52,080 bases of DNA from an uncultured Desulfobulbia bacterium (GTDB lineage: Bacteria; Desulfobacterota; Desulfobulbia; Desulfobulbales; SURF-16). Position 1 is the stretch's first letter. Each line of letters begins with the position of its first letter. Positions 10,462-51,608 of the stretch are shown one piece after another. The stretch lies in NCBI GenBank assembly GCA_964624225.1, contig CAZUZJ010000001.1:1-52080 (forward strand), written 5' to 3'. The position numbers were made by a program, and so were the translations under genes. The notes beneath the pieces were generated by a model. That model searched no databases. It was not told the DNA's origin and was given only the letters and a program-made list of their open reading frames with translations.

Positions 10462-10665
10462 GAAAACCGTCAAAACCTTCATTAATAGCCGCAATCCTGA
10501 CGGTTCTACCGGTTCGATACGGTTCTACATATTAAATTATAAATTAAAAATATAAATGAGTATGGAAAACCGTCAAAACTGGACAAACCGTCAGGATGTA
10601 AATTTTACATAGTTTTATGCGGCTGCATTTTTTGGTGTTGAAGAAAACCGACAGAACCTTCAGGA
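10462..10665. other. Putative replication origin: iterons flanking an AT-rich unwinding element
   Basis: GAAAACCGTCAAAAC occurs at 10462-10476 and 10565-10579. AACCGTCAGGA occurs at 10586-10596 and inverted at 10496-10506. CGGTTCTAC occurs at 10501 and 10520, and GAAAACCGACAGAAC at 10643. The AT-rich stretch is 10529-10560. Confidence 0.5.
10597..10609. promoter_or_regulatory. TGTAA-N3-TTACA palindrome (exact copy)
   Basis: tgtaaattttaca, in the origin-proximal intergenic region. Confidence 0.5.
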
Positions 10666-10698
10666 GGCAGGGTTGTTGGCGAGGATGTTATGGAGCGC

Positions 10699-10729
10699 GA
10701 ATTCTTCGCAATTATTCCCTTGACAAACC
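10699..10729. repeat. Target-site duplication (10699-10706, GAATTCTT) plus left inverted repeat (10707-10729)
   Basis: IRL is cgcaattattcccttgacaaacc. It matches the reverse complement of 13252-13274 at 19 of 23 positions. Confidence 0.75.
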
Positions 10730-10769
10730 AAGCAGTCTATGAGATGATTAAGGCGTAAAAGGAAACGCT

Positions 10770-11702
10770 ATGAATCTTATAGACCTAGCCCAACAATTCA
10801 GCAACGAGCGTGGCGCCAGAGCTTACCTCGAAAATCTCCTATGGCCCGATGGGCCGATCTGCCCAAAGTGCGGATTGGTCAATGAAGCCTACAAGCTCCA
10901 ACCTCGGAAGACTTCAAAGAGCCCCGTGCGCGAGGGAGTGTACAAGTGCAAAGGATGCGGCAAGCAGTTCACCGTGACCGTGAACACGATTTTCGAGGAT
11001 TCGCATATTCCGCTTCATAAGTGGATGATGGCAATTCACCTGATGAACGCCAGCAAAAAGGGAATGTCTGCGCATCAGATTCACCGCATGTTGGGCTTAG
11101 GCTATCGCGCCGCATGGTTCATGTGTCACCGCATTCGCTACGCTATGAATGCGGGGCCAGATGCCCCTAAGCTTAACGGCACAATCGAAGCTGATGAAAC
11201 CTATGTTGGCGGCAAGGTGAGAGGCAAAGGCTGTTATGTGGCCCGGCAGAAGAAAGCCCCGGTGGTGACTCTTGTCGAACGCAATGGAAAAGCCAGGTCG
11301 TTTCACTTTGAGCAAGTATGCGCCAGCAATCTGCGGCCTGTAGTCAAGGAACACATTGAGCAAGGCGCAAGCCTGATGACTGATGACTCGGGGTTGTACG
11401 CCAGCATGCGAGGCCACTTCAGCTCTCACGATGTAGTAAAGCATTCTCTTGGCGAATATGCGAGGCATGAAGTAGGCAAGACTGTTCACACCAACACAGT
11501 AGAAGGATTTTTCTCCATCCTGAAACGTGGAATTTTTGGGACTTACCATCATATCGGCAAGCAGCATCTTCATCGGTACCTGGACGAGTTTGACTTTCGC
11601 TACAATGCGAGAGATACTTCGGACGGTGAGCGATCTGAATTGGCTGTTAAAGGAGTAGTTGGCAAGCGACTTATGTACCGGGACTCATCCGGAACCGCAT
11701 AG
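10770..11702 (+). CDS. IS1595-family (ISXO2-like) DDE transposase with an N-terminal zinc ribbon
   Basis: CPKCG...YKCKGCGKQFTVTVNTIFEDSHIPLHKWMMAIHLM is the zinc-ribbon/HTH region. IEADETYVGGK is a signature of the IS1595 DDE domain. Confidence 0.85.
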   Translation: MNLIDLAQQFSNERGARAYLENLLWPDGPICPKCGLVNEAYKLQPRKTSKSPVREGVYKCKGCGKQFTVTVNTIFEDSHIPLHKWMMAIHLMNASKKGMSAHQIHRMLGLGYRAAWFMCHRIRYAMNAGPDAPKLNGTIEADETYVGGKVRGKGCYVARQKKAPVVTLVERNGKARSFHFEQVCASNLRPVVKEHIEQGASLMTDDSGLYASMRGHFSSHDVVKHSLGEYARHEVGKTVHTNTVEGFFSILKRGIFGTYHHIGKQHLHRYLDEFDFRYNARDTSDGERSELAVKGVVGKRLMYRDSSGTA

Positions 11703-11725
11703 TCGGCAAGTTTGACGGGTCTCTT

Positions 11726-12511
11726 ATGAATCGGCAACGTGAAGAAATCCCGTTCACAGTCAAGCTCGAAAGTGACGAGCCACTCAGTGTCAGGATAATC
11801 GCGGAAACACTGAGGGACATCGAAAATATGCTTTCTGACATTGAAAAGCATATCTTCAACACTTCCGACGCAAGAGCCCAATGGAAGTGGCCTGACGAAG
11901 CGGAACTTGAAGTGGTAGCGACTGTCAACGGCCTGGACCGAGCCCAACTAAGCCGAATTGTCGAAGAGGCAGAGAGGGGATTTGCAGAAGCTAAAGAGGC
12001 AAAAGGCAGCGTAAACTGGCCGTCTGGCTTTGGTCCCGCCGCGCAGCACTCCGCACGAAAGATTCTAGGCAGGCTTGAAAAACTTAACTCGATTATCGTT
12101 CGCGCAGAGGATCGCAGGCCCGTTACGATAACCACTGTGGAGATAGGGAAAAGAGTAACTGGAAAGCTGATCTCTCGACGGTGCGCCTATTCCTCCGTAG
12201 AGGGCAGGCTGGAACTTATATCCCATCGTGGGAAGCTCCGTGCGGCTGTGAAGGAAAACGTGACGGATTGTGTTGTTCAATGTACGTTTTCTGACGAACT
12301 GCTGGACGTGATCAAAGAACTCTTTGACAAAAGAGTAGTAGTCGAAGGCCTCGTAAATTACCGAGAAAATGGTGAGCCGATCTCTATAACGAAGGTAAGC
12401 AGCGTTACAGAGCGAAAACATGGCGCACCTCTTAGAGACTTCATCGGGTCCGCTCCAGACATAACCGGCGGCGTAAGCAGTGATGAGTTTATCGCCCGGC
12501 TACGGGGCTAG
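11726..12511 (+). CDS. Hypothetical 261-aa cargo protein (possible antitoxin or sensor partner of the PIN protein)
   Basis: Starts 23 nt after the transposase stop and lies inside the IRs. The C-terminal FIGSAPDITGGVSSDEFIARLRG resembles the tails of PIN-associated antitoxins. No other motif recognised. Confidence 0.65.
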   Translation: MNRQREEIPFTVKLESDEPLSVRIIAETLRDIENMLSDIEKHIFNTSDARAQWKWPDEAELEVVATVNGLDRAQLSRIVEEAERGFAEAKEAKGSVNWPSGFGPAAQHSARKILGRLEKLNSIIVRAEDRRPVTITTVEIGKRVTGKLISRRCAYSSVEGRLELISHRGKLRAAVKENVTDCVVQCTFSDELLDVIKELFDKRVVVEGLVNYRENGEPISITKVSSVTERKHGAPLRDFIGSAPDITGGVSSDEFIARLRG

Positions 12512-12558
12512 CAAGCGGCTGTCCCAAGCTGCACTTCCGATTCTTTTTGCGAGATAAT

Positions 12559-13077
12559 ATGAGCGAAGGGCCACAAATCCAGTACTGGGATGCTTGCCTG
12601 TTTATATCGCTTCTCATAAAGGAAAAAGATCGGGCGACAACCATTGAGAAACTTCTGGACAGGCAGGAGAGAGGTCACTTAGTAATTACCATATCGACGC
12701 TAGTTATTGCCGAAGTTCGCCCGGATGAATTAAACCCTGACCTCGACCCGATGCAGTATAAGCGCATTCAGGAGCTTTTTAACTCCGACAGACTAGATTA
12801 TCGAGCCGTGACACCCGCTATTGCCGAACGGGCTCGGGAGATCGGCGTTCAGCATCCTAAGCTACTGCCGCCCGATTGCATCCATATCGCGACGGCGCTG
12901 GCGGCAAAAGCGGCTGTTCTGTTTACGTTTGATGGCGTCGGACCCAAAAGGCGCCGTCCTGGAGAAATGGTCCGGTTTAACGGACTATTTGGAAATCCTC
13001 CACTTAAGATATGTGCGCCATATGTCGAGGAGGGACCACTGTTTGATGCGCAAAAAGCCCAAGAAACTGAAGGTTGA
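12559..13077 (+). CDS. PIN-domain nuclease (VapC-like)
   Basis: The acidic residues fit the PIN pattern: YWDACLF (Asp), VIAEVR (Glu), PPDCIHIATA (Asp) and FTFDG (Asp). TTG at 12547 is an alternative start. Confidence 0.75.
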   Translation: MSEGPQIQYWDACLFISLLIKEKDRATTIEKLLDRQERGHLVITISTLVIAEVRPDELNPDLDPMQYKRIQELFNSDRLDYRAVTPAIAERAREIGVQHPKLLPPDCIHIATALAAKAAVLFTFDGVGPKRRRPGEMVRFNGLFGNPPLKICAPYVEEGPLFDAQKAQETEG

Positions 13078-13210
13078 TAGAATCCTAAAAGAATTCCAGA
13101 AATCTGAGCAGTCATCCTCTCATCGCCGCGACGCCTTCAAGATCGAAGGTGATTTCGAGGACGCCGTGCGGAAGATCGCCGGAGCCAAGCCCAAACCGAA
13201 AGGGCGCTAA
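13046..13210 (+). CDS. Possible 54-aa basic protein overlapping the PIN gene 3' end
   Basis: Internal ATG of ORF 12821-13210, translating MRKKPKKLKVDRILKEF...AGAKPKPKGR. It ends 42 nt before IRR. No clear RBS. Confidence 0.3.
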   Translation: MRKKPKKLKVDRILKEFQKSEQSSSHRRDAFKIEGDFEDAVRKIAGAKPKPKGR

Positions 13211-13251
13211 GTTCACGCCTGCCCGTCAACGCTCTCACCATCCTACCACAA

Positions 13252-13282
13252 GGTTTGTCAAAGGCATAATTCCTGAATTCTT
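13252..13282. repeat. Right inverted repeat (13252-13274) plus target-site duplication (13275-13282, GAATTCTT)
   Basis: ggtttgtcaaaggcataattcct is followed directly by gaattctt. Confidence 0.75.
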
Positions 13283-13357: not shown

Positions 13358-13576
13358 CTAGGTACATATGTGGCGTTCCCTTACCCTTTTTTCAAATGTC
13401 ACATAGTCACACCCAAACTCGCGTTCTACCGGATTTTTCTGGCTGACTCTGTGTATGCGGGTGAGATTACCCCTTCGGTCCTCTTCATACCAGATAATAG
13501 CGAAAGGTACTCCCAGTTTTTTTGCTAGCTTCAGGCCGACAGGGGCCGGCTTGAAATTGGAGCCATCGCCGTGACA
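13358..13576 (-). pseudogene. Start-less 72-codon open frame continuing the 13531-14106 gene in another frame (frameshifted gene or remnant)
   Basis: Hand translation: CHGDGSNFKPAPVGLKLAKKLGVPFAIIWYEEDRRGNLTRIHRVSQKNPVEREFGCDYVTFEKRVRERHICT*. Protein-like composition, but no ATG/GTG/TTG near its 5' end. It overlaps the end of the upstream ORF by 46 nt. Confidence 0.3.
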
Positions 13577-14106
13577 TCAATGCTTTCGTCGGCGACAGGG
13601 GCTAATTTGATGTCTGAGCAGAAGATTTCGACTTCATTTGAGTTACCGACGGATTCTTTACACTTAGTTCTTTCCTCGCGCAGCTGGCTTTTGAAATCCT
13701 TTGAAACCGACTTGATGAATCCAGTGACACTCAAGGCTTCCTTAGCTTTGGCTTCTTCAAGTTTCTGGCTGAGCCGCTCGGGGCTTAGCGCTCGCCGGAG
13801 AAGCTGGGAACGAGCGGAGATTCTCCAAGTGATGCCTTCGGGTACAAATTTCGGCCTGCCGCGATTTTCCTTCCCGACGGGTAGGAAATTCTTCTCGTTG
13901 GCCAGAAATTCTCCCAGCAGCCATAGCGCGCGAATCTGAACCTCCGTGGCGTAGTCCACCACTTCTTTCCCGGCCTTGACCCGCTGGGCATAAACTCTGG
14001 CCGCCGCAGCTAGGTCTGAGATTCGCTTAGCGTCTTGAATTGTTTTGGCTTGGAAAAGAAGCTTAGAAGCTTGGTCTATTTTCGCGAGGACGGCATCATC
14101 GACCAT
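13531..14106 (-). CDS. Hypothetical early protein; its helical N-domain resembles those fused to phage DNA methylases, and its C-end looks like a decayed methylase motif
   Basis: IQDAKRISDLAAAARVYAQRVKAGKEVVDYATEVQIRALWLLGEFL is the helical domain. EIFCSDIKLAPVADESIDVTAMAP aligns by eye with ...GD...LPDESVDLIxTDPPY, but the DPPY motif is lost. Confidence 0.6.
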   Translation of the reverse strand: MVDDAVLAKIDQASKLLFQAKTIQDAKRISDLAAAARVYAQRVKAGKEVVDYATEVQIRALWLLGEFLANEKNFLPVGKENRGRPKFVPEGITWRISARSQLLRRALSPERLSQKLEEAKAKEALSVTGFIKSVSKDFKSQLREERTKCKESVGNSNEVEIFCSDIKLAPVADESIDVTAMAPISSRPLSA

Positions 14107-14155
14107 GGATTCTCCTTAGCGAGAGAACGTGCACGTGATCACGGTACCGCAAAAC

Positions 14156-14698
14156 CTACGGGGATAGCTCCAGATAGTGCAGCGCGAACTCCTGGAGGAG
14201 CCGCTGGCAAATCTCCTGCCCCAGCCTCCGGCTAGACGCGAATATGGGGTTGACCCCAAACTTGCAAGCCCAGCAGATCGCCGAGGCCAGCGCCGCGTTT
14301 CCCGACACCAGGCTGCGCTCGTATCCGGCCTTGATCGTTCGGGCGTCGGCTTCGATCAAGAGATAGGCCGTCATGCCGCGCAAACGGGCCAATTCTCGCT
14401 CGAAGCGCTCCCTGCCGTGTCCAACTACCCCGAAATAGTCTGAGAGGCTTTTACGCTCAATTACGATGGGCAGGAGTTCACCGTCAAGCTCGACCGAGTA
14501 GTCCCCGGCGTCCAGGGCGTAGCACAGAGTGCCGCCGTCGTCGAACTCACGGCGTGGCTTGGAGAAGGAATACGCCATTTTTTCCCTCGAATCGACCACA
14601 AAGGTTAAGACTGGACGCGGCCTAGCTTTTCCTGTTGCGATTGTAGTACTCCTGCCGTGAAGCGTACTTTCGGCGCTTGTCGGTTTGTGCACGGTCAT
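14156..14698 (-). CDS. ERCC4-type (Mus81/XPF-like) nuclease domain protein
   Basis: The ERCC4 motif series is VVDSREK, then GDYSV, then IERKSLSDY, then LLIEA. The start is uncertain: ATG at 14698 overlaps the upstream HNH gene by 77 nt. Confidence 0.65.
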   Translation of the reverse strand: MTVHKPTSAESTLHGRSTTIATGKARPRPVLTFVVDSREKMAYSFSKPRREFDDGGTLCYALDAGDYSVELDGELLPIVIERKSLSDYFGVVGHGRERFERELARLRGMTAYLLIEADARTIKAGYERSLVSGNAALASAICWACKFGVNPIFASSRRLGQEICQRLLQEFALHYLELSP

Positions 14699-15245
14699 GG
14701 ATTCTTTTGCATTCCCTGCACCACCGGCCTTTCCTCGATGGCCGACCGGCAAGGCTCGGGCCTTCATAGGGATGGCCCCTGGGACAATGAGTCTTGCGGG
14801 CGTTCTTCCCCAAAGATGCGTGATCGGTCTTAGCCACGTTAAGGAGATGGTGAGGATTTACGCACAGGGTGTTTTCGCAAAGATGGTGAAGTAGCCTATT
14901 GCTGGTTGGGAGCCTGTTGCCGGCGAGCACCCACGAGATTCGATGCGCATCGATGGGCCTACGGAGCACATTTAGGACGCCGTAGCCTTTATGGCTAAAT
15001 CCCGTCCAAAGCCAACATTTGCCGAGGCTGGGCTTGCCCGAGGGTGGAGGTCCATCTTTGTTGACATTTTTCCAAAATCGGGCGGCGACTCCAGCTCTCG
15101 GGACGCTGGTTTTTGCGTACCTCCCCGGTGGGCTCAGGATCGCAGTTTCGAGCGCATTCACGTCCATGCAGAATTGACTGTCCACGTCTTCCTCCCAGGC
15201 GTGATTGCATCCGTTCCAGTCGATTCTTGTGTTTGGGTTTGCCAT
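14622..15245 (-). CDS. HNH homing-type endonuclease (HNH_3)
   Basis: CWLWTGFSHKGYGVL...AHRISW...HHLCENTLCVNPHHL is the classic phage HNH_3 pattern. The start overlaps the upstream stop (TAATG). Confidence 0.85.
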   Translation of the reverse strand: MANPNTRIDWNGCNHAWEEDVDSQFCMDVNALETAILSPPGRYAKTSVPRAGVAARFWKNVNKDGPPPSGKPSLGKCWLWTGFSHKGYGVLNVLRRPIDAHRISWVLAGNRLPTSNRLLHHLCENTLCVNPHHLLNVAKTDHASLGKNARKTHCPRGHPYEGPSLAGRPSRKGRWCRECKRIHDRAQTDKRRKYASRQEYYNRNRKS

Positions 15246-16189
15246 TAGCTCTTTGCCTCCCTCACGACAAATCTCCGGCTTTCGGGGCTGATCTTGGTCT
15301 GCACCGAGGAAACCCCCCTCTTGCCCCGCAGGGTGGCTAGAACGCTCATGACAGAGTTCATGGCCTCCTGCGACTCGAAGCTGAGCGTCGCCTTCCAGGA
15401 CGGCCTTACGCGCTCCCAGTTTGCCCGCCATCCGGCGGCGCAAGCGGAGTTGGACAGTCCCATCAGGCATTTTAGCTCCGAGTCGGCCTCCGCCTTAAGT
15501 TCTTCGAATTCCTCTATTTTCTGCTGGGCGTACTGCCGTCTTGTGATTGCCGCCAGCCATTTGTCCTCTGGGACCTCCGCCGGTTGGTCGGGCCACCGGT
15601 CGTTGCTGACCGCTTCCCAGAACTCCCGAATCGCTGGCTTGGCGTACGTTTCCCAGAACTCGCCCAGGCTCAGTTCATCGCCCCAATTGTCCCATACGCT
15701 CACTGGGAGAAGCTCCTTCTGGCCGGAGGCATGGTGGGCGACGAAGAAATCACAGGTCTCGACGTCGAATATGTCCATCATGGCGGCGCACTGGAGCTGG
15801 TAATGAGCGGGCACTACCCCGCGCTGCATGGACCTAAGCAGCCGGTCGCTGGACGGGCTTTTTAGCTCGACCAGGCATTTTTCTTCCGCGTACCAAGCGT
15901 CCGCGAAGCAGCGAAGGAATTCGAATTCTTGATGCTGGGCGCATACCTGCCGCTGAGCCTTTTCTTTGTGGGGGACGGCCTGTTCGTAGAGCCGGAAGGT
16001 TTCGTCCTCCATTTCCAGCCCAAACTTCATGGCCTCAGTCTGCGGCGGCTTCTCGCGCCGGCCGGTCTTGATCTGCCAAAGCTCATAGGCCGTCTGCCAC
16101 GGGTCGTAGCCAACGATGGCGGCGACCTGCGACGCCCCGATCTGAACCTCGGATTTCATCACTTCTGGGTCAATAAATTTTACGGCCAT
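15245..16189 (-). CDS. YqaJ-type recombination exonuclease (lambda Exo-like PD-(D/E)XK)
   Basis: IGASQVAAIVGYDPWQTAYELWQIKTG is a YqaJ N-terminal signature. LVELKS and YQLQCAAMM are also present. Confidence 0.8.
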   Translation of the reverse strand: MAVKFIDPEVMKSEVQIGASQVAAIVGYDPWQTAYELWQIKTGRREKPPQTEAMKFGLEMEDETFRLYEQAVPHKEKAQRQVCAQHQEFEFLRCFADAWYAEEKCLVELKSPSSDRLLRSMQRGVVPAHYQLQCAAMMDIFDVETCDFFVAHHASGQKELLPVSVWDNWGDELSLGEFWETYAKPAIREFWEAVSNDRWPDQPAEVPEDKWLAAITRRQYAQQKIEEFEELKAEADSELKCLMGLSNSACAAGWRANWERVRPSWKATLSFESQEAMNSVMSVLATLRGKRGVSSVQTKISPESRRFVVREAKS

Positions 16190-16567
16190 TTACTTCGCCT
16201 CCTTTTCCAGCAGCGGCTCGCTGCAATCCCACTCGTAAATCGGCTCTTCGCGTGCCGGGATAACCATTTCCGGGATGACTTTCTCCGGCACCTGCCGTAC
16301 CCCAACCTGCTTCCTCTTGCAGCAGTCTCTCCTTGAGGTTATAGCCCGAAATTCGATTTCGCCAAACTTGGTAACAAATGCGATGGAGCCCTCGAAATCC
16401 TTGTCGTACTCGTTTCGGAAGCTCCCGAGCGCGTTAATGATCCCTTCGACGCGCCCAGTACAAATGTCTACGAATATCACGTGATCGAACGGGAGACCGG
16501 CCTGTGGGTGCTGCTCATAGAAATCCGCGATCATCCGCAGGCTGTCAGCGTACTCTTTGTTTGTCAT
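16190..16567 (-). CDS. Hypothetical early protein (125 aa)
   Basis: GGAGGAAGG RBS. The stop abuts the exonuclease start. Confidence 0.65.
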   Translation of the reverse strand: MTNKEYADSLRMIADFYEQHPQAGLPFDHVIFVDICTGRVEGIINALGSFRNEYDKDFEGSIAFVTKFGEIEFRAITSRRDCCKRKQVGVRQVPEKVIPEMVIPAREEPIYEWDCSEPLLEKEAK

Positions 16568-16595
16568 CCTTCCTCCTTGAATTTCGTCACGGGCC

Positions 16596-17087
16596 TTACC
16601 GGATGGGCCGTCCCTTGACTACAACTCCGCGAGGGATGTCGCCGGTCAGGCTTCTCAGGTAGAGATCGCCCCCTGCGCTCAGCTTGGCATTATCGGGTAG
16701 GCTCGTCAGCCCGCTCAGGTCGAGAGCGCCCCCTGCGCTCAGCTTGGCATTGGCAGGTAGGCTCGTCAGCCCGCTCAGGTCGAGGTAGCCCCCTATAGCT
16801 ATATTGCCCTTCCACCTCGGAAAGCGTTTCTCAAGCCCCATACGCGCCCTGTGCTCGTCTTGGACAGGATTGAACCACGCAGGCAGCACATCTTGGTCAA
16901 CGGAGAACTCCCACTCGTCCATGTTCAGCCAGTTATCGCCGGTAGGAACGATCTCGACCTTGACGAAATCCGGCACCGGCTTGTCGTCAGGCAGTTTGCA
17001 GTGCTCGATGATGTCGGTGTGACTATCCGAATCCTTTAGCCATAAGACGGACGTTCTGGTTATCACGCTGGACGCGAATCGGCACAT
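16596..17087 (-). CDS. Hypothetical protein with C-terminal 20-aa leucine-rich tandem repeats
   Basis: ATG at 17087 follows the upstream TAA. The repeats read LDLSGLTSLP(A/D)NAKLSAGG. Confidence 0.65.
   Translation of the reverse strand: MCRFASSVITRTSVLWLKDSDSHTDIIEHCKLPDDKPVPDFVKVEIVPTGDNWLNMDEWEFSVDQDVLPAWFNPVQDEHRARMGLEKRFPRWKGNIAIGGYLDLSGLTSLPANAKLSAGGALDLSGLTSLPDNAKLSAGGDLYLRSLTGDIPRGVVVKGRPIR
16654..16795. repeat. 60-bp tandem repeat, about 2.4 copies
   Basis: ctcaggt(a/c)gag...gctcgtcagcccg units start at 16654, 16714 and 16774. Copies 1 and 2 are near-identical. Confidence 0.8.
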
Positions 17088-17088
17088 A

Positions 17089-18192
17089 TTACCTTGCCTC
17101 CCTGATCTTGTTGACCAACTCGCTAAACCTCGATTTATCAATAGCCGCAATCGTCCCGGAAAGGACTTCCATGCGCGTCTTGCCCGGCCCGGTTTTCATT
17201 TGGGCTCCTTCGTTCAGCAGGAACTCAAGGGCCGCCGCGGGGTCGTCCTGCCCGTTCTCATCGGGCTTTATCATCCCGCGCTTCCGAAACTCCCTGAAAA
17301 GAAGCCGCGTCTGGCCGACCGTGAGCGTGTTCTCCATTGGTGGATTTGGCTCGCTGCCCTGGGGGGCCGGGCCCTCTGCTGGCTTGGCTTCGGGCTTTCG
17401 CGGCGGTGCTGGCTGCGGCCCCTCTCTCGGCGGCGGCGGAGCCTTGGGCGCAGCGGGCTTTTGCTCCGGTTCTGTCGCGTCTTCGGGCTCTGTTCGCTTG
17501 ACCGGCCCGATCTCACCGGGCAAGGGGTCGGCGTCCTTCCTGCGCCAGCGGCGCACGTTGCCCTTGAACGTCTTGACCCACACCTCGACCGCGTGCTTCG
17601 CCATGAATTCCCGCTGGAACTTTCTGCGGTAGACGTTTGCCCCGATGGAAAGGGACTTGCAAATCCGGCTTAGCGCGTTGCTGGCCGTCATTTCTGCGGC
17701 GTCCGCCTTCGTGGTTTCCTTATTGTTGATGAAAAATCTGCCGTCACCGACCGCCTGGCCGACGTAGCATTCGTGGACCACGAGCATCCAGCGCTGAAAG
17801 ATCGGAACGTCTTTCTGGCCCGGCTCTACGTCGTGGTCGCGGGAAATTCCGGAGAGTGGAATCATTGACCAGGCCCCCTGCCCGAAAATCTCCGAGAGAC
17901 ACTCGCGCAGATAGTTTGCCTCGATGTAAATTATTCCTTCGGGCCGGATTTCGATATCGTCGTCTTCGACGATCATGTGCTCCCGTAGCTTCTGCTTTTC
18001 CTCCGGGGTCATTCTCTCCGGCAACTTTGTGGCGTTCGCATAGAACAGAGCCAAGGTTTCGGGCGGCACGATAACCTCGCCTACGTCCTTCGATAGAGTC
18101 TGCAATGCGTCCTGCTTGTCCGGCAGCGTGGCAAGTTCCTGCCGCAGGGGTTCATCATCCTGCGGGCTCGCGGGCACGATTTCTTCAGTCAT
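17089..18192 (-). CDS. Rad52/Sak-like single-strand annealing protein with a Pro-rich linker and a C-terminal domain
   Basis: YIEANYLRECLSEIFGQGAWS and ADAAEMTASNALSRICKSLSIGANVY fit the Rad52-fold SSAP pattern. The gene is adjacent to the YqaJ exonuclease. GGAGG RBS. Confidence 0.65.
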   Translation of the reverse strand: MTEEIVPASPQDDEPLRQELATLPDKQDALQTLSKDVGEVIVPPETLALFYANATKLPERMTPEEKQKLREHMIVEDDDIEIRPEGIIYIEANYLRECLSEIFGQGAWSMIPLSGISRDHDVEPGQKDVPIFQRWMLVVHECYVGQAVGDGRFFINNKETTKADAAEMTASNALSRICKSLSIGANVYRRKFQREFMAKHAVEVWVKTFKGNVRRWRRKDADPLPGEIGPVKRTEPEDATEPEQKPAAPKAPPPPREGPQPAPPRKPEAKPAEGPAPQGSEPNPPMENTLTVGQTRLLFREFRKRGMIKPDENGQDDPAAALEFLLNEGAQMKTGPGKTRMEVLSGTIAAIDKSRFSELVNKIREAR

Positions 18193-18303
18193 TTCCGGGC
18201 CTCCTTTTTCTTTCCGAGAGTGGCACGTTTCGTTTACTTTGTCAAGGCATTTGTTCGGGCGGCTCTATTCCTTTATGCCCATGCTCGCCGCGAGAATCGC
18301 GTT

Positions 18304-18678
18304 TCAATTGGGCTTAACCACGAGGCCCCGACTCTTTGCGTCTTCAAGCTCGGCGTCGGCGGCAAGACGAATCCAGTCCGCGCCGGTTGGCTTGCTGCAT
18401 TGCGGATTTGTGCAGGATTTGGCGTGCTCATCATTCAGACACAGCGGGCACGGGGCATCCTCAGTCATGAGGAGGAGCCCCCACCTGTCCAAGGCGTGCG
18501 CGTATATGTTGAAACACGCCGACATCAAGGGGTCGTAGTCCTCGTTGCTCGCAGAGCCCTCAAGCCGATTCGCAAGTCGGCTATATGCCTGCCCGCCATC
18601 GCCGGAAACGAACCGCATCAACCCCCGCTCTTCGATTGCTGCCTTCAGCTCCTTCCAGTGCGCTTGACACATTTTCAT
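18304..18678 (-). CDS. Hypothetical Cys-rich early protein
   Basis: 124-aa ORF with a GGAG RBS. Contains CPLC...C..PQC motifs. Confidence 0.6.
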   Translation of the reverse strand: MKMCQAHWKELKAAIEERGLMRFVSGDGGQAYSRLANRLEGSASNEDYDPLMSACFNIYAHALDRWGLLLMTEDAPCPLCLNDEHAKSCTNPQCSKPTGADWIRLAADAELEDAKSRGLVVKPN

Positions 18679-18732
18679 GGCTATAGCTCCTTTTGTGGTA
18701 TCCGGGCGGGCAGCAAGCTCGCCCGGTCCTGC

Positions 18733-19026
18733 CTACCGTTTGATTCCCATCCTTGCCGCGAAGATGGCATCCGCGCGGGCGACCATCTCCTGCGCGCATT
18801 CGTTGCAGTAGAAGCCCTTGTCCCCCTGCTCGCGGGCGCCGGCGAGTTCGTCTTGGGTTCCCAATATGAACACCCCCTCGATAAAAGAACCGTCCGCCTG
18901 GTTCTGGCACCCGTCGCGCTCGCACCAGACCGGCTCGCGGTGCGGGCCGAAAATGAGCTCAAGGGCGGAGTCGAACAGCTCGCCGATCCGTACCCATTCG
19001 TTTGGCCTTACGCTGCGTTTTCCCAT
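18733..19026 (-). CDS. Hypothetical zinc-binding early protein
   Basis: 97 aa, with WCERDGC...YCNEC Cys pairs. Confidence 0.6.
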   Translation of the reverse strand: MGKRSVRPNEWVRIGELFDSALELIFGPHREPVWCERDGCQNQADGSFIEGVFILGTQDELAGAREQGDKGFYCNECAQEMVARADAIFAARMGIKR

Positions 19027-19039
19027 CGCTCTGCCCCCT

Positions 19040-19219
19040 TCACAGGTAATCCCTGATTGCTTCGGCTTGCCGCAGGATCGCAGCCCATTGTTCGGGCGTC
19101 GGCGCGTACCGCCCGCTGACCTCGATCAGCGACAGCAGGGCTTCCAGTTCGTGCGCCGGAACTTCCTTCAACTCGAACCATTTGCTGCGGTCGTCATGCC
19201 GATGTTGCTTTTCAGTCAT
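19040..19219 (-). CDS. Hypothetical 59-aa protein
   Basis: Internal ATG (MTEKQHRH...) with an ATGA overlap to the stop of 19216-19413. Confidence 0.5.
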   Translation of the reverse strand: MTEKQHRHDDRSKWFELKEVPAHELEALLSLIEVSGRYAPTPEQWAAILRQAEAIRDYL

Positions 19220-19413
19220 TCGTGGGCCTCGTATCTTTCCCGCATCCGCCGGACGTAACAGTCCAAGTGGCAGGCGCTTCTTACTACGGTGATCTCGTAG
19301 CCCCGCATCCAAGTCGTCACCTTGCACGCAGGGACGGCGACTCGCTGCTCGGCGTCTGTGATCGGTCGACCGCAGAACGTGCAGGTCATTTTGTTTGCCG
19401 GGTTCCTGGCCAT
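19216..19413 (-). CDS. Hypothetical small Cys-containing protein
   Basis: 65 aa. Contains CTFCG...C...CH. Confidence 0.55.
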   Translation of the reverse strand: MARNPANKMTCTFCGRPITDAEQRVAVPACKVTTWMRGYEITVVRSACHLDCYVRRMRERYEAHE

Positions 19414-19427
19414 CTAATCCCCTAAGG

Positions 19428-19757
19428 TTACTTGACATCCACGAGAATGTGCTGGATTGCCCAGTGGTATGGGTTAAGCAGTGCGCTCGCGGCGAGGCAG
19501 GATAATACAACAGCAAGCGCAAGTGCTATCGCCGCCGTGACAACAGATGCACCAACGCTGCCGTCGTAATCCTCGATCTTCAGCAGATGCCTTGCCAAGA
19601 GGGCTAGCGCAATCGAGGCCGCAAATGCCACCGCCGCCGCAAACGCGAAAAGATAGCCGTCGATCCGGGCTTGCCTAATATAGGCGTCCAGGGTTTTGGC
19701 CTGTGCGTTGGCCCCCCATTCGCTCATTTTTTTCAGCACTTCGAGTTTCCAATCCAT
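19428..19757 (-). CDS. Membrane protein (about 3 TM)
   Basis: ATG at 19757 lies 7 nt after AAGGAGA. The hydrophobic segments are FAFAAAVAFAASIALALLA and VVTAAIALALAVVLSCLAASAL. Confidence 0.65.
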   Translation of the reverse strand: MDWKLEVLKKMSEWGANAQAKTLDAYIRQARIDGYLFAFAAAVAFAASIALALLARHLLKIEDYDGSVGASVVTAAIALALAVVLSCLAASALLNPYHWAIQHILVDVK

Positions 19758-19796
19758 TCTGCCTGTCTCCTTTTCCGGTTGTGGCTCGTCCGCAGA

Positions 19797-19833
19797 GGCC
19801 CGCGCCCGGATTCGAACCGGGTTGACCGTGGGC
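19797..19833 (-). other. tRNA-like acceptor/T-arm minihelix (not a complete tRNA)
   Basis: The minus strand reads GCCCACG-GTCAA-CCCGG-TTCGAAT-CCGGG-CGCGGGC-C. The T-arm is a perfect consensus (GGTTCGAATCC) and the acceptor-like stem is 7 bp with one A/C mismatch. No D arm or anticodon arm could be folded. Confidence 0.35.
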
Positions 19834-19862
19834 ACCCCCGCTCGCCTTACGGTCATTCCGGC

Positions 19863-20171
19863 CTACTCCAGACGGTCTCCTACGTCGATATAAAAGGTGT
19901 TGGCTGCTTTAGGCATAATTACCGCGCGTCCATTGGAGCAATAGATTTCAACCAGGCCGTCCCTGACTCGTGCGTACATATGGCCGCCGCGTGCCACGCG
20001 GAACTTGACCTCAGAGCCTGGCGGAAGCCCTCGGGGTTCCTCGGCTCCGCTCGACAAGTAAGTATCTGTCTCCCCCTTTTCGCACGCTGCTGACAATGCC
20101 TTTTCCTTCCAGTAAGCTACGTCCGATTTCAGGGTGGCTATTTCTCTTTCAACTTTCTTTGCTATCGCCAT
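19863..20171 (-). CDS. Hypothetical early protein (102 aa)
   Basis: ORF with a GGAG RBS and a coiled-coil N-terminus. Confidence 0.65.
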   Translation of the reverse strand: MAIAKKVEREIATLKSDVAYWKEKALSAACEKGETDTYLSSGAEEPRGLPPGSEVKFRVARGGHMYARVRDGLVEIYCSNGRAVIMPKAANTFYIDVGDRLE

Positions 20172-20332: not shown

Positions 20333-20333
20333 T

Positions 20334-21405: not shown

Positions 21406-21443
21406 TGAACCTCCTTGTTCGTCGCTTGGCTGAGGGGCTTCCG

Positions 21444-21941: not shown

Positions 21942-21943
21942 TC

Positions 21944-22279: not shown

Positions 22280-22406
22280 CCTAATCCTCGATTCTCCGCG
22301 TTCGGTCGCGGTTGCTAGTCCCTCGTTTCGAGATGTGGGCGGCTTTCGTACCGCCCGCCGGTGGTCAGCCGGACGCTCCGGTTGCCCGGAGTAGGCGCGC
22401 CGGAGA

Positions 22407-23853: not shown

Positions 23854-23963
23854 TGTAGAAATTACATGGCCGGTACGTAAAAATTACCTTCTTGGCAGCA
23901 AGTTGTTGATAATGCACCTGTTGGTCGGCTGGTAAAAAATACGCGGAAGATGTAAAAATTGCA
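23854..23963. promoter_or_regulatory. Cluster of three TGTAA-N3-TTACA-type palindromes
   Basis: tgtagaaattaca at 23854-23866, cgtaaaaattacc at 23876-23888 (22 bp apart), and tgtaaaaattgca at 23951-23963. Confidence 0.5.
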
Positions 23964-24524: not shown

Positions 24525-24563
24525 TGTGGCAAAAAAACCACACTTTGTGGTAAAAAAACCACA
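24525..24563. promoter_or_regulatory. Two tandem 18-bp A-tract palindromes, TGTGG(C/T)AAAAAAACCACA
   Basis: Copies at 24525-24542 and 24546-24563, exactly 21 bp apart. Confidence 0.5.
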
Positions 24564-24577: not shown

Positions 24578-24590
24578 TGTAAATTCTACA
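24578..24590. promoter_or_regulatory. TGTAA-N3-TTACA-type palindrome (1 mismatch)
   Basis: tgtaaattctaca, 15 bp after the A-tract palindromes. Confidence 0.45.
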
Positions 24591-24771: not shown

Positions 24772-24784
24772 TGTAATTATTACA
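24772..24784. promoter_or_regulatory. TGTAA-N3-TTACA palindrome (exact; extended GTGTAATTATTACAC)
   Basis: A perfect 15-bp palindrome at 24771-24785, just after an AT-rich stretch (24705-24745). Confidence 0.5.
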
Positions 24785-27488: not shown

Positions 27489-27539
27489 TTGACACGGCAT
27501 CGCCACCCATTACAATAATCGCAGCGTGTAAATTTTACA
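27489..27539 (+). promoter_or_regulatory. Near-consensus sigma70 promoter followed by an exact TGTAAATTTTACA palindrome
   Basis: TTGACA (27489-27494)-16 nt-TACAAT (27511-27516). The palindrome at 27527-27539 sits at about +4 to +16, with GGAGG at 27541 and ATG at 27553. Confidence 0.5.
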
Positions 27540-32746: not shown

Positions 32747-32797
32747 CCAACGGAAAATTACCCTTGACAACTGGAAAAATTGGGGCCAATCTTTCTA

Positions 32798-32824
32798 TGT
32801 AAAAATTACATGGTAATTTTTGCC
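32798..32824. promoter_or_regulatory. Exact TGTAAAAATTACA palindrome plus an adjacent degenerate copy
   Basis: tgtaaaaattaca at 32798-32810 and ggtaatttttgcc at 32812-32824. TTGACA at 32764-32769 lies upstream. Confidence 0.5.
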
Positions 32825-42387: not shown

Positions 42388-43212
42388 ATGTCTGTCGTCT
42401 ATTTAGTGCGCCATGTTGAAACTCCAGCCAATGTAGGCGAGCCCGTGGTGCGCGGCAATATGGACGTTCCGCCAGACCCAAGGGGCATACAGCAGATTCA
42501 AGCGTTGTCAAAAAAGTTCGCCGGAAAGCCGGTCAACCTTATCCTCAGTTCCCCACTCGCCAGAGCCATGGCGCTGGCAAAAGGCATTCAGGCGGCCACG
42601 GGAGCGAGACTGGAACCCGTCAATGCTCTCAAATCGTGGGACAGGGGCATACTCACCGGCAAGCCGGAGTCGCAGGCGAAGCCCTATGTTGAGTGGTACT
42701 TCGAGCATCCGACGGTGCCAATCCCGGCTGGCGAATCCTATGAGTCGTTCTACACGCGGTGGCAACAAGCGCTTACGAGGATATTAGACCTTGCGAGGAA
42801 GACGGGAATTAATATTGTGGTCGTCACCCACGCCCATAATCTGAACACCGCGCCCTCGATTTTGACGGGCGGCAAGGAACCGATTGCCGTAGATTCCGCC
42901 CCGGCTCCGGGCTCCGTCCTGACGCTTTCCTCCTCGGGCTCTGGATGGAAGCTCGGGGCCGGACTGGGCGGGGCTCGAACCAGAGGCGTATCAGCGCCAA
43001 GCCGTAGGAGCCGGGTGCTGAATGTCGCCCGAAACAAAAAGCCCATGCCGAAGCAGCGCAGGGCGGCAAACCCGCTCAAGCCACGTTCACTGGACGGCGG
43101 CGACAAGGTTGGATTCGCCTATCCCATTGGATCGACCGAGCCGGGCGGCGCAACTCGTGGAACGATTCCGCAGGGCCTTGGCGGGAACACCCAAATGCCG
43201 GAGAACTACTGA
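42388..43212 (+). CDS. Histidine-phosphatase (phosphoglycerate-mutase-like) superfamily protein with a basic disordered C-tail
   Basis: VYLVRHVETPAN is an RHGxT-type motif with Val replacing Gly. SSPLARA and VVVTHAHN are also present. The C-terminal ~90 aa are Gly/Arg/Pro-rich. Confidence 0.7.
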   Translation: MSVVYLVRHVETPANVGEPVVRGNMDVPPDPRGIQQIQALSKKFAGKPVNLILSSPLARAMALAKGIQAATGARLEPVNALKSWDRGILTGKPESQAKPYVEWYFEHPTVPIPAGESYESFYTRWQQALTRILDLARKTGINIVVVTHAHNLNTAPSILTGGKEPIAVDSAPAPGSVLTLSSSGSGWKLGAGLGGARTRGVSAPSRRSRVLNVARNKKPMPKQRRAANPLKPRSLDGGDKVGFAYPIGSTEPGGATRGTIPQGLGGNTQMPENY

Positions 43213-44517: not shown

Positions 44518-44718
44518 ATGACGTTCATCATCTACGATTCGAACAGCGGGCAGATCAAATCGGCCTATTCGGTCTATCTCCCAGCCGATCAGATTGCTGC
44601 TTTCTTGGCGGCCAACACCCCGTCGGGGCACGAAGCGATTGAGGTTCAGGACGACTCCCCGGCATTGTCCGACATGGGCAAGTGGCACGTCAAAAACAGA
44701 CAGTTGCAGTCCGTGTAA
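44518..44718 (+). CDS. Hypothetical protein (66 aa)
   Basis: ATG 2 nt after the upstream stop. Confidence 0.55.
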   Translation: MTFIIYDSNSGQIKSAYSVYLPADQIAAFLAANTPSGHEAIEVQDDSPALSDMGKWHVKNRQLQSV

Positions 44719-44726
44719 ATTTTACA
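44714..44726. promoter_or_regulatory. Exact TGTAAATTTTACA palindrome
   Basis: It overlaps the stop of 44518-44718 and lies 16 nt before the ATG at 44742. It is flanked by TTGCAG (17 nt upstream of TAGAAT) and by TAGAAT. Confidence 0.5.
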
Positions 44727-49700: not shown

Positions 49701-50925
49701 ACACTCGCTCTCCGATCCTCAGTATCGGCGCATGGGATTTACGCCCGATGAGATAGCGAAGATCGTCGCCAGGCGGAACAACGAACTCTTCACCGGGCCG
49801 CGTGCAATTAAGGGGCATCTTGGCACGAACGCAAAGACATGGGCCGACCTTGAAAGGCTTGTGTTGTTTGCACCTGGATTTGAGATCGGAAACCTGAAGT
49901 ATGCGGCGCGCGCGCTCCTTGCTGACCCTGAGGTTTATCGAAAAATACTCGAAAGCGACGACCCGGCTCTCAAGAAGCTCGTAAGGATGGCAAGGGAAAC
50001 TGTCTGGCACGCCAATGAGCCACGCATGAACTTTGCGAAGCTGGCTGCTGCCCTGTATTTCGGCACGCGGCTCATCAACGCCGCCTTGAACAACGGAGAA
50101 ACCTACCCAGGAAAACCGTTCACAATCGTGATAGGAAAGGGCGACAAGCGAGAGGAATTCACGCCCCGAAGCCAGGTGACCGACTTGGCCGAGTTTGCTC
50201 CGAGGGTTGGCCAGGGGCTCATAAGCGGGGCCAGGACATTCGCGTCCGGCAGGCTCTCGCCGCTGGCGAGGGCCGCTATCGAGGGGATCGTCGGGAGGAA
50301 CCTCTACACAGGCAAGCCGCAGTCCGGCGGTCAAACGATACTGAGTGCTGGCGAGAACGTCCTGCCATTCTTTACTCAGGCATTCCAGGGCCGGTATGCG
50401 GACGAGACGCTTGGACAGAAGGCGCTGGGAGCCGTCGGAAGATCGGTAGGCATTCATTTCCACCCCGGCTATACCAAGGCCGAGAAAATTGCTGATAGCT
50501 TTATCAAGAAGGGTTCAACCAGCGGCGACATGACACCCAAGCAGGAAGCAGCAGAACACCAGAGATGGCTCTACCAAACAGCGCTGGCCAACGGCACGCT
50601 GACCCCTCAGGATTTCATCGCCGAGACAGCGGGCAAGTTGACGCCGGCGAAGCAACTGGCAATCATCAGGATGGCGCACGAACCGAGGCTGTTTCGGATG
50701 GTTTACAGGCTTCCGCTCAAGCAGGCTCTCGATGTTTACGCCGCCGCAAAGCCGAACGAGCAGGAAGAACTGTACCAGTTGATAATGGGGAAGGCGGTGA
50801 ACAAAGTAAAAGGGGCGGCGGCAGATGAGCGTGCGGGGCTGATCCAGGAGGCCAGAAAAGGCATTCACGCGCCGCCGCGCCGGGCGCTACGGTTCAACGT
50901 GCTGGGGAGACCGTCGCCGCCCTAA
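46750..50925 (+). CDS. Very large virion protein (1391 aa); internal core/ejection or tape-measure-like
   Basis: It is the largest ORF and lies after two Gly/Ala-rich proteins, as the core genes do in T7-like gene order. The AFIPD motif occurs three times (PAFIPDPP and PAFIPDEP at the N-terminus, PAFIPDAEAERQA near nt 48140). TTG start, uncertain. Confidence 0.55.
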   Translation: MGNSVPAFIPDPPTERQAPAFIPDEPEGRSITLSSGRTLPVSSKQPVESYFRALETTLAHPIEATRTAIHALTSPTPEQVAAVRDEAAKAGVAPPVPKPSRSEFTPDRSAYSRPGPYFTRLDPKEEAAFEAWAKSIGQAPSPDYDLRGFWKAMQSGDPRARRAVNPVTRTVHFPDTWKTPYSRSFSNESIYALPDAPHWEGAKLIDKNGNVVFEDKPPSHRASGNGSTIEAAPEESRLKELLLGGPQAGETALGEALIAAGREFPTLEPLIQKIGPYEAREDQGLSAPVLGLGALRRTPGIIHGALTALGGLTSIPNLEMQALAGPAVAGAAGLVGKTASSVLERLAAAGFSGEMLKGLYNELPEFRRRVNSGDTVGAREMIGQMAVQAPLALLSGAAAIHGPKAEAAIPAEASEVVPEAEGSTPGAADTQQTEAPVPKPAPKVSIRLTPEGEARFEARPSEAPPAFIPDAEAERQASTVAQPQALPVGPGHMTAGSGEGQGHPLAQTVQSLSAQDKISPLIEDAVAEKPKPPIAPQGHLAKVVQDFRNTFKPAPESTSVEDARNHFDKDKQVIDHHVRRYLEEVRRLVPDEKVRSAMFVYAETRGTPEERMAQLQDWADRSEGDAKTKYVLAQHLTPQQRVLAENERNLRDAIYPIAHKWGVIKGHVEDYMNHMLKDPTEAGERNKIKRFSVEFARSSQFGLRRRFPTIFDMEQEGFHPVTDIAKATPAYVDSVYRAIRTRRMVHELANSTDAEGRPNAVIAGDAIQISRPGKPVAPGSQIAELPEEGQMSLPFGTHAAGTEGRPEPELATLVRSGRLRGVDNQADYEAINHPAFRGYRVVTTDKNGNPLVLEAPMKFSPDAARMLKDMIEPSAVRQTPAGRLLLRGVTGAKKLMTFASPFHAVNVWMRAAPEAGIRAAFRPRDLDAIMADPGVQSLMDHGLQLITPRSASEGLVSGPHSLERWMFEDWIPRVKAESALADLEHSLSDPQYRRMGFTPDEIAKIVARRNNELFTGPRAIKGHLGTNAKTWADLERLVLFAPGFEIGNLKYAARALLADPEVYRKILESDDPALKKLVRMARETVWHANEPRMNFAKLAAALYFGTRLINAALNNGETYPGKPFTIVIGKGDKREEFTPRSQVTDLAEFAPRVGQGLISGARTFASGRLSPLARAAIEGIVGRNLYTGKPQSGGQTILSAGENVLPFFTQAFQGRYADETLGQKALGAVGRSVGIHFHPGYTKAEKIADSFIKKGSTSGDMTPKQEAAEHQRWLYQTALANGTLTPQDFIAETAGKLTPAKQLAIIRMAHEPRLFRMVYRLPLKQALDVYAAAKPNEQEELYQLIMGKAVNKVKGAAADERAGLIQEARKGIHAPPRRALRFNVLGRPSPP

Positions 50926-51581
50926 TTTGGTCTTGGGTTCGAGGGCTGGCTGCTCGCATCCGGCGGCGTTGTGCCAAGCGACTCTGCCAGGGCACAAGAG
51001 AGGTCCAGCAGGGACCCGCGCTTAACCCCCTCGGGATCGGCTGCCCATGACTGCTCATTATACGGGGCCGCACAGAGCATCAGCCTTGCCGCTGGCACCA
51101 CCTTTCCGATAGACCGTAGCGAATGCATCCCATCGGTGATAACGGCCTCAGGCCCCAGCGCTTGGGCAAGCTGGGCGCGTTCTTCAGCGGAGCCCAGCGT
51201 AATCAGCGAGCAATTGTCTTGCCAAACCCCCATGCGGCGGAGCCAGGTCTGGGTTTGGTGATGGCAAAGCGGCCCTTGGCGCACGCTGATGTAATAGACG
51301 TTATAGACCATGCCAAGCCCAAATGTCAGGAACGAGTACCATTCGGCGACATTCTCGCGCAGGGGCGGCACCCTGAGCCACCATGACGGCATCCCGATAG
51401 CCATCCTTGCAAATTCCCGCCACTGGTCTTCCGTATACGGCGTCAGGTCGAGTTCGGCCTTTGGCCACGCACCGTCGTCGCCATCTTCGGCTTTGGGGAA
51501 CATGCGCCGCAGTAACTCTCTGGCAGCGCTGTTGAAGTCGGCCAGAACCCCATCAACCTGGACAAATAAACGCTTTTCCAT
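50922..51581 (-). CDS. NT5C-like HAD-family 5'(3')-deoxyribonucleotidase homolog lacking the nucleophile Asp
   Basis: FVQVDGVLADF aligns with the NT5C motif VDMDGVLADF, with the first Asp replaced by Gln. Opposite strand, and its stop overlaps the stop of the 1391-aa gene. Confidence 0.55.
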   Translation of the reverse strand: MEKRLFVQVDGVLADFNSAARELLRRMFPKAEDGDDGAWPKAELDLTPYTEDQWREFARMAIGMPSWWLRVPPLRENVAEWYSFLTFGLGMVYNVYYISVRQGPLCHHQTQTWLRRMGVWQDNCSLITLGSAEERAQLAQALGPEAVITDGMHSLRSIGKVVPAARLMLCAAPYNEQSWAADPEGVKRGSLLDLSCALAESLGTTPPDASSQPSNPRPN

Positions 51582-51595
51582 TCGTTACCCCATCG

Positions 51596-51608
51596 TGTAA
51601 AATTTACT
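51596..51608. promoter_or_regulatory. TGTAA-N3-TTACA-type palindrome (1 mismatch) in a divergent intergenic region
   Basis: tgtaaaatttact, 15 nt from the minus-strand ATG (51581) and 48 nt from the plus-strand ATG (51657). Confidence 0.45.

Follow-up and report, generated by a model that had tools for sequence, protein, structure and literature searches.

A dispersed palindromic site in a tailed phage contig as a candidate operator, with copies in unrelated phages and an Acidobacterial chromosomal element

The window analyzed here is the whole 52,080-nt stretch of contig CAZUZJ010000001.1 (assembly GCA_964624225.1, positions 1 to 52,080 of the forward strand). It covers the greater part of the contig, which is 54.5 kb long and belongs to a tailed phage (57.6% GC), and the subject of this study is a 13-bp palindrome, TGTAA-N3-TTACA, that recurs along it. 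By sequence comparison the phage is novel, with no near DNA match to the window among GenBank phages and a best identity of 61% for its large terminase in a search of 5.8 billion proteins. A rightward block (521-10458, +) contains genes for a tailspike-like protein, a LuxR/GerE protein of 69 aa and a primase/helicase, together with small genes and a lysis cassette that includes lysozyme. A small cassette read leftward (−) holds a helix-turn-helix (HTH) protein (7410-7814) and an N6/N4 methyltransferase (6581-7261). The leftward early operon (13531-23659, −) carries genes for an ERCC4 nuclease, a YqaJ exonuclease, an Mgm101/Rad52-like annealase and an ArdC-like protein, and the rightward late operon (from 25258, +) those for the small and large terminase, a portal-like protein, and capsid and tail proteins. 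Between the two operons lies a gene-poor control region of 1.6 kb (23660-25257).

Exact copies of the core TGTAANNNTTACA begin at 10597, 24772, 27527, 32798 and 44714. These five had been listed in the original prediction, which took the palindrome for a phage regulon signal, and all are confirmed, with no exact copy in 100 dinucleotide-preserving shuffles of the window. At up to one mismatch there are 10 copies against 0.34 expected, among them the four previously reported at 23854, 23951, 24578 and 51596. A scan that allowed two mismatches and required W at both inner spacer positions gave 11 copies against 1.6 expected and added 23876, which had been named earlier as a weaker copy. We also built a background from the non-coding DNA alone (5.3 kb of the window, 52% GC, Markov order 1-3), which predicts 0.003-0.005 exact and 0.08-0.15 one-mismatch copies. 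The strictly non-coding copies number four exact and eight one-mismatch, leaving out 44714 for its overlap with a stop codon, and the enrichment over this background is roughly 1000-fold. Intergenic AT-richness therefore does not account for the enrichment, which is genuine and holds against both the shuffled and the intergenic background.

Nine of the 10 copies with at most one mismatch lie outside genes or, counting 44714, at a gene boundary. The restriction to such places claimed earlier thus stands for these nine and fails for a copy that had been overlooked, a one-mismatch site of uncertain status (2539..2551) inside the 800-aa tailspike-like open reading frame (ORF) 521-2923. This copy, which the GerE gene follows at a distance of 393 nt, overlaps the −10 hexamer of the promoter-like sequence TTGTCA-18-TAAAAT (2517-2546). 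Two weaker copies reported before fare differently. The one at 32812 is probably real because it begins 1 nt after site 32798, in a tandem arrangement found also at host and other phage loci, and the half-site at 28400, which overlaps a stop codon and has no other feature in its favor, is probably due to chance.

The control region 23660-25257 carries five or six copies, which bears out the cluster described there, and the 10-kb leftward early operon has none. The one-mismatch site TGTAGAAATTACA (23854..23866) is followed 22 bp on by the two-mismatch site CGTAAAAATTACC (23876..23888). Next come the sole perfect match in the 52-kb window to the IHF consensus WATCAANNNNTTR, here TATCAACAACTTG (23899..23911, −), and a TGGTAAAA box (23930..23937, +) that lies 21 nt upstream of the one-mismatch site TGTAAAAATTGCA (23951..23963). 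Further right, two adjacent dyads, TGTGGCAAAAAAACCACA and TGTGGTAAAAAAACCACA (TGTGG-N8-CCACA, 24525..24563), precede the one-mismatch site TGTAAATTCTACA (24578..24590), and the second dyad holds another TGGTAAAA box 30 nt upstream of that site. The exact site TGTAATTATTACA occupies 24772..24784. Each of the two dyads also has a TGT-N12-ACA geometry, which resembles that of the Ogr/Delta activator sites of P2/P4 late promoters.

The remaining sites are dispersed. The late region has its best sigma-70-like promoter at 27489..27516 (+; TTGACA-16-TACAAT, 11/12 matches), and the exact site at 27527..27539 starts 10 nt past the −10 hexamer. In the predicted transcript the site would span about +4 to +16; a GGAGG ribosome-binding site follows after 1 nt and ATG 27553 (+) after 13 nt. 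A tandem pair at 32798..32824, with a TGGAAAAA box (32772..32779, +) 26 nt upstream, consists of the exact site TGTAAAAATTACA, 1 nt, and a degenerate partner with three mismatches, GGTAATTTTTGCC; ATG 32853 follows 42 nt past site 32798 and 28 nt past the end of the pair. The exact site at 44714..44726 overlaps the stop codon of 44518-44718, fills the spacer between the hexamers TTGCAG and TAGAAT, and ends 15 nt before ATG 44742 (+). The one-mismatch site at 51596..51608 separates two divergent genes; the ATG of 50922-51581 (−) is 14 nt away on one side and ATG 51657 (+) 48 nt away on the other. With sites 13, 15, 14, 42 and 48 nt upstream of start codons, the proposal of a dispersed signal at gene-block boundaries holds. 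One exact site, TGTAAATTTTACA (10597..10609), follows the primase/helicase gene, about 100 nt left of an IS1595 insertion, and is discussed below with replication.

A profile was pooled from 40 exact sites, those of the window and of nine other phage loci, whose ten core bases are fixed by the selection. At the two inner spacer positions, 6 and 8 of the 13-mer, A and T alone occur, and any base may stand at the center. Preferences in the flanks mirror each other, R at −1 against Y at +1 and A at −4 against T at +4, with C three positions before the core and, weakly, G three after it. The consensus thus extends to about 21 bp, ACnR-TGTAA-WnW-TTACA-YnGT, of which GCGTGTAAATTTTACACGG is an example. 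A perfect palindrome with a symmetric flank profile agrees with the dimeric DNA-binding protein suggested earlier.

The position of the site relative to promoters bears on the sense of regulation. A promoter that the site overlaps or adjoins is clear at 27527, where the site is centered near +10, and in two other phage contigs, at L215:6531 (TTGACA-17-TATGAC, 10 nt, then the site) and L034:8074 (TTGACA-18-TAACAT, 5 nt, then the site); elsewhere weak hexamers lie nearby. The site at L134:12109 begins 4 nt past a TTGACA, and 44714 likewise begins 4 nt past a −35-like hexamer. Repressor operators typically occupy variable positions that overlap the promoter or start, whereas an activator would be expected at a fixed upstream position. 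The positions found here would be typical of a repressor operator.

To see the site in other replicons, IMG/VR was scanned with CGTGTAAATTTTACA and then for two sites within 31 nt, and the phage contigs so found were compared over parts of their sequence. Contig L034 has 12 copies in 12.6 kb, of the variant TGTAAT[C/G]ATTACA, among DNA polymerase and nuclease genes. Two of its sites, at 10471 and 11410, lie inside long ORFs at domain junctions (UDG | 3'-5' exonuclease; ERCC4 | HhH), and there the ORFs may be either separate genes or linker-coding DNA in which a site is tolerated. The 99.7-kb contig L216 has seven copies in 20 kb, six of them inside a divergent control region. L215/L045 have three tandem sites 31 bp apart and one more behind a promoter, and the 21-mer CAGTGTAATTATTACACGGTC at 24772 of the window matches a site in L045 at 20 of 21 positions. 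In L134 the control region that precedes the late operon holds six copies, L021 has a tandem site-N1-site at 2488/2502, and L089, L024 and L111 also carry the motif. Among the motif-bearing contigs are the IMG/VR records IMGVR_UViG_3300042090_000423, 3300050821_008688, 3300014169_000080 and 3300035643_000024.

In the DNA compared, the proteins that the window has in common with the motif-rich loci by blastp are few: the terminase and portal of L134, about 26% identical to those of the window, and two small proteins of uninformative function (an 86-aa ORF in L089 and a weak KTSC-domain match in L216). Three closer relatives of the phage, L011, L012 and L014, make no repeated use of the motif, of which L012 has a single copy. 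Conservation in related phages, a check that the original prediction had named, thus fails among the closer relatives and is seen in the distant L134 and in unrelated contigs. Since the motif occurs in phages with almost no common protein and is not repeated in closer relatives, the signal moves independently of the phage backbone. The presence of the site in unrelated phage contigs and in the chromosomal element described next had gone unnoticed before.

Scanning bacterial genomes for two sites gave matches across a wide range of taxa. The high-GC matches included two contigs of one Terriglobales metagenome-assembled genome (MAG) and one Acidobacteriaceae contig, in which the arrangement is a tandem site-N1-site with conserved flanks. 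The corresponding tandem scan of metagenomes returned 30 loci, mostly from peat and soil, which represent 13 distinct versions of one element (contigs L256, L266, L269 and L339-L364). The element is about 300 bp long and intergenic, and its parts stand in the order parS, IHF-consensus box, TGTGG-N9-CACA dyad and tandem site-N1-site (alignment A2). A canonical parS (TGTTTCACGTGAAACA or TGTTCCACGTGGAACA) is placed 186-192 nt upstream of the tandem sites in nine of the 13 versions and 142-203 nt upstream in 11. The box is invariant in all 13 and, read on the other strand, matches the IHF consensus perfectly (TATCAATGACTTG). The TGTGG-N9-CACA dyad is likewise invariant and takes the same place as the dyads at 24525..24563 of the window. 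A further palindrome, TGACY-N3-RGTCA, occurs between parS and the IHF box in many copies. The parS-linked element appears to be previously undescribed, and literature searches on the exact motif sequences brought up nothing relevant.

Window positions 23895-23963 align to this host element as GCAAGTTGTTGATAATGC, 14 nt, TGGTAAAA, 13 nt, TGTAAAAATTGCA. In this alignment (A1) the sole IHF match of the window (23899-23911) falls on the invariant host box, the TGGTAAAA box at 23930 corresponds to TGTGGTWAAA, and site 23951 falls on the first host site. The window has five TGGWAAAA octamers, of which three sit 21-30 nt upstream of a site; a rough estimate of the probability of this by chance is about 1e-5, and the two TGTGG-N8-CCACA dyads stand just before site 24578. 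Taken together, the alignment, the sole IHF match, the octamer spacing and the dyads argue that the phage control region carries a host-type assembly of DNA sites. The phage probably infects an Acidobacterium of Terriglobales type, in agreement with the GC content and with the taxa from which the closest relatives of its GerE protein and terminase come. L012, L014, L216 and L024 likewise have IHF-consensus matches, inside their control regions or close by. The stretch 7900-8900 of L012, whose terminase is 48% identical, has three GTACT-N3-AGTAC palindromes, three IHF-consensus sites and one TGTAAtccTTACA, which suggests that operator sets are exchanged between related phages.

We propose, and give an even chance, that the palindrome is the core of an operator with dyad symmetry, about 21 bp long and recognized in duplex DNA, that one dimeric protein reads it in a repressor-type regulon, and that this protein is probably of the host (Acidobacteriota). 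A dimer of one sequence-specific protein would bind ACnR-TGTAA-WnW-TTACA-YnGT at sites that mark the boundaries of transcription units, namely the cluster in the control region, the heads of the late blocks and one origin-like region. Bound there, with the operator centered near +10 or between the −35 and −10 hexamers, the protein would most likely block initiation or promoter escape, and the control region and late blocks would be switched as one regulon. The binder would be a host protein, or a protein with the same specificity, and probably neither of the recognizable HTH proteins of the phage.

Several points weigh against this proposal. The genes that flank the host element differ from copy to copy (gyrA, ispE/prs, zwf/pgl and others) with no consistent downstream gene, and no clear sigma-70 promoter was seen in the element; its function may not be transcriptional, which would weaken the case for a repressor operator. 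In five phage loci the palindrome precedes a start codon by 10-18 nt, eight times in all, and adjoins the ribosome-binding site on its upstream side, in an arrangement that reads TGTAAATTTTACAtagtgggagcatccATG at L021:3119. A pure DNA operator needs no such regularity, and the sites may instead act at the mRNA level. Arrays of the core also occur beside Xre cI/cro-like gene pairs in low-GC prophages, with 22- or 43-bp tandem spacing, and three to four TGTAAAWTTTACA-core palindromes about 33 bp apart are found at L267 850-1200, L323 870-1100 and L332 1-200. With arrays in such plainly different systems, the core alone therefore names no protein family. Finally, no cognate DNA-binding protein was found: co-occurrence with GerE failed, and the contig parts compared yielded no protein common to the motif loci. 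A small regulator shared by the phages could lie beyond those parts.

This last point leads to the alternative that the binder is encoded by the phage, which we regard as unlikely. The candidates would be the GerE protein (2945-3154), the HTH protein 7410-7814, a small zinc-ribbon ORF (24969-25268) or an unrecognized small protein, and the host copies would be coincidental or bound by a host homolog. The 69-aa product of 2945-3154 has a clear GerE domain (Pfam 2e-17), and the one-mismatch site 2539 overlaps the promoter-like sequence upstream of its gene. LuxR-type HTH domains can read TGTAAG half-sites (PMC9911603). The closest relatives of the protein are short LuxR-type proteins, several from Acidobacterial MAGs, so a host homolog of like specificity is conceivable and could itself be the binder. 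The half-sites of the core are 8 bp apart in a dyad of about 21 bp with its flanks, versus half-sites 10-12 bp apart in LuxR-type sites of 18-20 bp, and the spacing is 5 bp off that of the GacA sequence.

The distribution of the candidates speaks against both proteins that the original prediction had put forward. GerE homologs with 48-58% identity stand at the same tail-fiber/lysis junction in L209 and L212-214, which have no site in 10-20 kb, and the bacterial or phage contigs L369-L371, which also encode homologs, have none nearby. Of the top 120 GerE homologs, none lies on a contig whose length agrees with that of a motif-bearing one, and no homolog was found in the compared DNA of the motif-rich loci. 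The HTH protein 7410-7814 has no relatives among 5.8 billion proteins, and the motif is common to several phages. As seven GerE loci lack the motif and 7410-7814 lacks relatives, neither would be the factor common to all motif-bearing phages; nor did blastp find any informative protein that the window and the motif-rich loci have in common. The stand-alone GerE/LuxR gene keeps its position between tail-fiber genes and the lysis cassette in otherwise different phage contigs.

In a second alternative the palindrome acts in mRNA as a short AU-rich 5' hairpin before the ribosome-binding site, controlling stability, processing or translation and possibly bound by an RNA-binding protein. The eight gene-proximal sites fit such a role, as does the predicted transcript at 27527, which begins 3-4 nt before the hairpin. 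On the + strand, G.U pairing could accommodate three of the five one-mismatch copies of the window, and the hairpins at 27527 (z = −3.4) and 44714 (z = −4.0) fold better than shuffles. RNA hairpins usually keep structure or loop and not stem sequence, and here the arms are invariant and the center is variable. At the first flank pair 23 of the 40 sites are complementary, where base frequencies would give about 19, and G.T is as frequent as A.C; there is therefore neither covariation nor a wobble bias. Predicted energies reach just −2.3 to −6.9 kcal/mol, and at 32798 another structure folds best. RNAalifold found no covariation in the 13 host elements (covariation term 0.12), and these had no Rfam match. 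Arrays that stand among promoter hexamers, the IHF consensus and other DNA dyads at fixed spacing are also hard to reconcile with a hairpin. The hairpin, offered earlier as an alternative, is accordingly disfavored by the sequence pattern and in our view improbable; the pattern fits two protein half-sites on duplex DNA better than an RNA helix.

Replication, segregation or chromosome organization might offer a third explanation, with an initiator or a ParB-associated protein binding the palindromes in the manner of iterons or of accessory sites of a centromere. The host tandem sites near a canonical parS, at about 188 nt, point this way, and L034 has a ParB-HTH-like gene. The 33-bp arrays of L267, L323 and L332, on MAG contigs labeled Planctomycetota or Gammaproteobacteria, adjoin TTATCCACA DnaA boxes, TAGTAGTAG trio repeats (TAG-trio) and AT-rich DNA, lie inside or beside a replication-type ORF, and look like origins of plasmid- or phage-like replicons. 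Within the window, site 10597 lies amid three iteron-like GAAAACCGTCAAAAC repeats and an AT-rich stretch beside the primase/helicase gene. The segment 10462-10662, directly 3' of that gene, has three direct repeats GAAAACCG(T/A)CA(A/G)AAC, an inverted copy and a 40-nt AT-rich stretch, and is plausibly a replication origin, which the insertion has cut off from its right flank. The earlier statement that this copy lies next to the origin is thus upheld as far as the origin-like repeats and AT-rich DNA go; that the gene to the right belongs to the insertion sequence had been missed. Site 10597 is nevertheless the sole one in an origin-type setting, and the repeats there differ in sequence from the palindrome. 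The window shows no parS-like sequence at up to three mismatches, no partition genes were found in it, and most of its sites are single, right before late genes and behind promoters, which known origins or centromeres do not predict. We consider this explanation, too, very improbable.

The weakest alternative, that the palindrome is itself a promoter element (a −10-like TAAAAT/TAAATT or −35-like TTTACA for sigma-70, or a hairpin or sequence promoter of a phage-specific polymerase or sigma factor), can draw on the TTTACA and TAAAAT hexamers inside the site, on a −35-like hexamer 17-18 nt upstream of the internal TAAAAT at 2539, 51596, L034:1323 and L216:8561, and on TTTACA-16-CATAGT promoters drawable in the tandem arrays, but it is hardly credible since the better −10 of the gene-proximal sites faces away from the gene and the transcript would not include the ribosome-binding site, −35-like hexamers stand at differing distances (21, 28, 32 nt), and no RNA polymerase or sigma gene was found among the window proteins scanned against Pfam and PHROGs.

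Other candidates were tried and rejected. As a sigma-70 −10/−35 element for the downstream gene the site has inconsistent spacings, and by inspection a sigma-54 reading of TGG...GC fits one window copy and no host copy. A target of the N6/N4 methyltransferase (6581-7261) would not stay intergenic, and an N4-type hairpin promoter was set aside with no virion RNA polymerase detectable. Boxes of LexA, Fur-family 7-1-7, TyrR, CRP and the LacI family differ in spacing or center, and no matching regulon genes lie at the host sites.

Among known systems, the TyrR box TGTAAA-N6-TTTACA has near-identical half-sites (TGTAAR/YTTACA) in dyad, and so has the GacA/UvrY upstream activating sequence TGTAAG-N6-CTTACA (PMC9911603). 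Both are upstream activator sites, and the phage spacing is 5 bp shorter (TGTAAW-N1-WTTACA). Cluster K mycobacteriophages have start-associated sequences, a conserved 13-bp element a few bases upstream of many starts that is asymmetric and includes the ribosome-binding site. Unlike these, the phage site is palindromic and stands ahead of the ribosome-binding site, and it is found in arrays remote from gene starts as well.

Closer in layout are the stoperators of Cluster A mycobacteriophages (L5, Bxb1), asymmetric and transcription-oriented sites of a monomeric immunity repressor in temperate phages, which silence transcription units as a set (PMC9283540, PMC6550527). Like stoperators, which are 13-14 bp long, the site described here is a single short sequence repeated many times along the phage genome, in short intergenic gaps or over start and stop codons. 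It differs from stoperators in being palindromic with symmetric flanks and in occurring in unrelated phages and a host chromosome; neither an immunity repressor nor an integrase was found in the window proteins scanned (Pfam and PHROGs gave no integrase or CI-type repressor in scans of all ORFs from 300 aa upward and most of the small ones, apart from some small and mid-sized ORFs such as 35635-38336 and 38333-39079). Phage GIL01 works without a classical repressor through host LexA operators at early and late promoters (PMC4551915, PMC6182141). As in GIL01, the same operator is present in a host chromosome, here in 13 distinct Acidobacterial elements, with part of the upstream module in common. 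Unlike the SOS regulon of LexA, the host copies belong to a parS-linked intergenic element, and no SOS genes were seen near them. Plasmid RK2 has dispersed palindromic operators for KorA/KorB, and the loading site of the ParB-family protein is distant from the operator of a small dimeric repressor (PMC11790492). The host element with parS about 188 nt from the tandem sites is similar, whereas the phage has no parS and no ParB gene was found in it; a link between ParB and the site-binding protein is conjecture.

Some features of the window lie apart from the site. The IS1595-family insertion (10708-13274, 2567 bp), which sits inside the origin-like intergenic region, has terminal inverted repeats CGCAATTATTCCCTTGACAAACC and GGTTTGTCAAAGGCATAATTCCT and an 8-bp target duplication GAATTCTT. 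It carries a transposase (10770-11702), an ORF of unknown function and a PIN-domain protein (12547-13077), and with 51% GC it is below the rest of the phage. A His_Phos_1 (histidine-phosphatase) gene at 42388-43212 is unusual cargo amid a block of structural genes. The control region has no convincing gene, is very GC-rich at 24000-24500 and has C/G runs near 24840-24880; it could hold a packaging site or an unannotated RNA. Its small ORFs have no Pfam domain except for a weak zinc-finger hint in 24963-25268; the small zinc-ribbon ORF (24969-25268; CxxC...CxxxC) lies just upstream of the small-terminase-like gene. Searches for tRNAs and known RNA families found none in the window.

The unexpected part of these results is the link to the host element. 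It is a long shot, going beyond the operator proposed above, that soil Acidobacteria phages each acquired the operator of a host protein from the conserved element and use that protein as a common master switch, and that the host element is a new ParB-linked locus. A possible mode would be that replicating phage DNA titrates a scarce host repressor and the late genes come on only after replication. If this were true, the host element would be a new ParB-linked regulatory or chromosome-organizing locus, analogous to KorB/KorA long-range silencing. Acidobacteria are abundant in soil and hard to culture, and gene regulation in their phages is almost uncharted. A site common to unrelated phages and a chromosomal element provides a sequence-based link from uncultivated phages to their hosts. 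The 21-bp site can be used as bait for the binding protein and makes the timing of late genes testable, and the host element may bear on chromosome organization in Acidobacteria.

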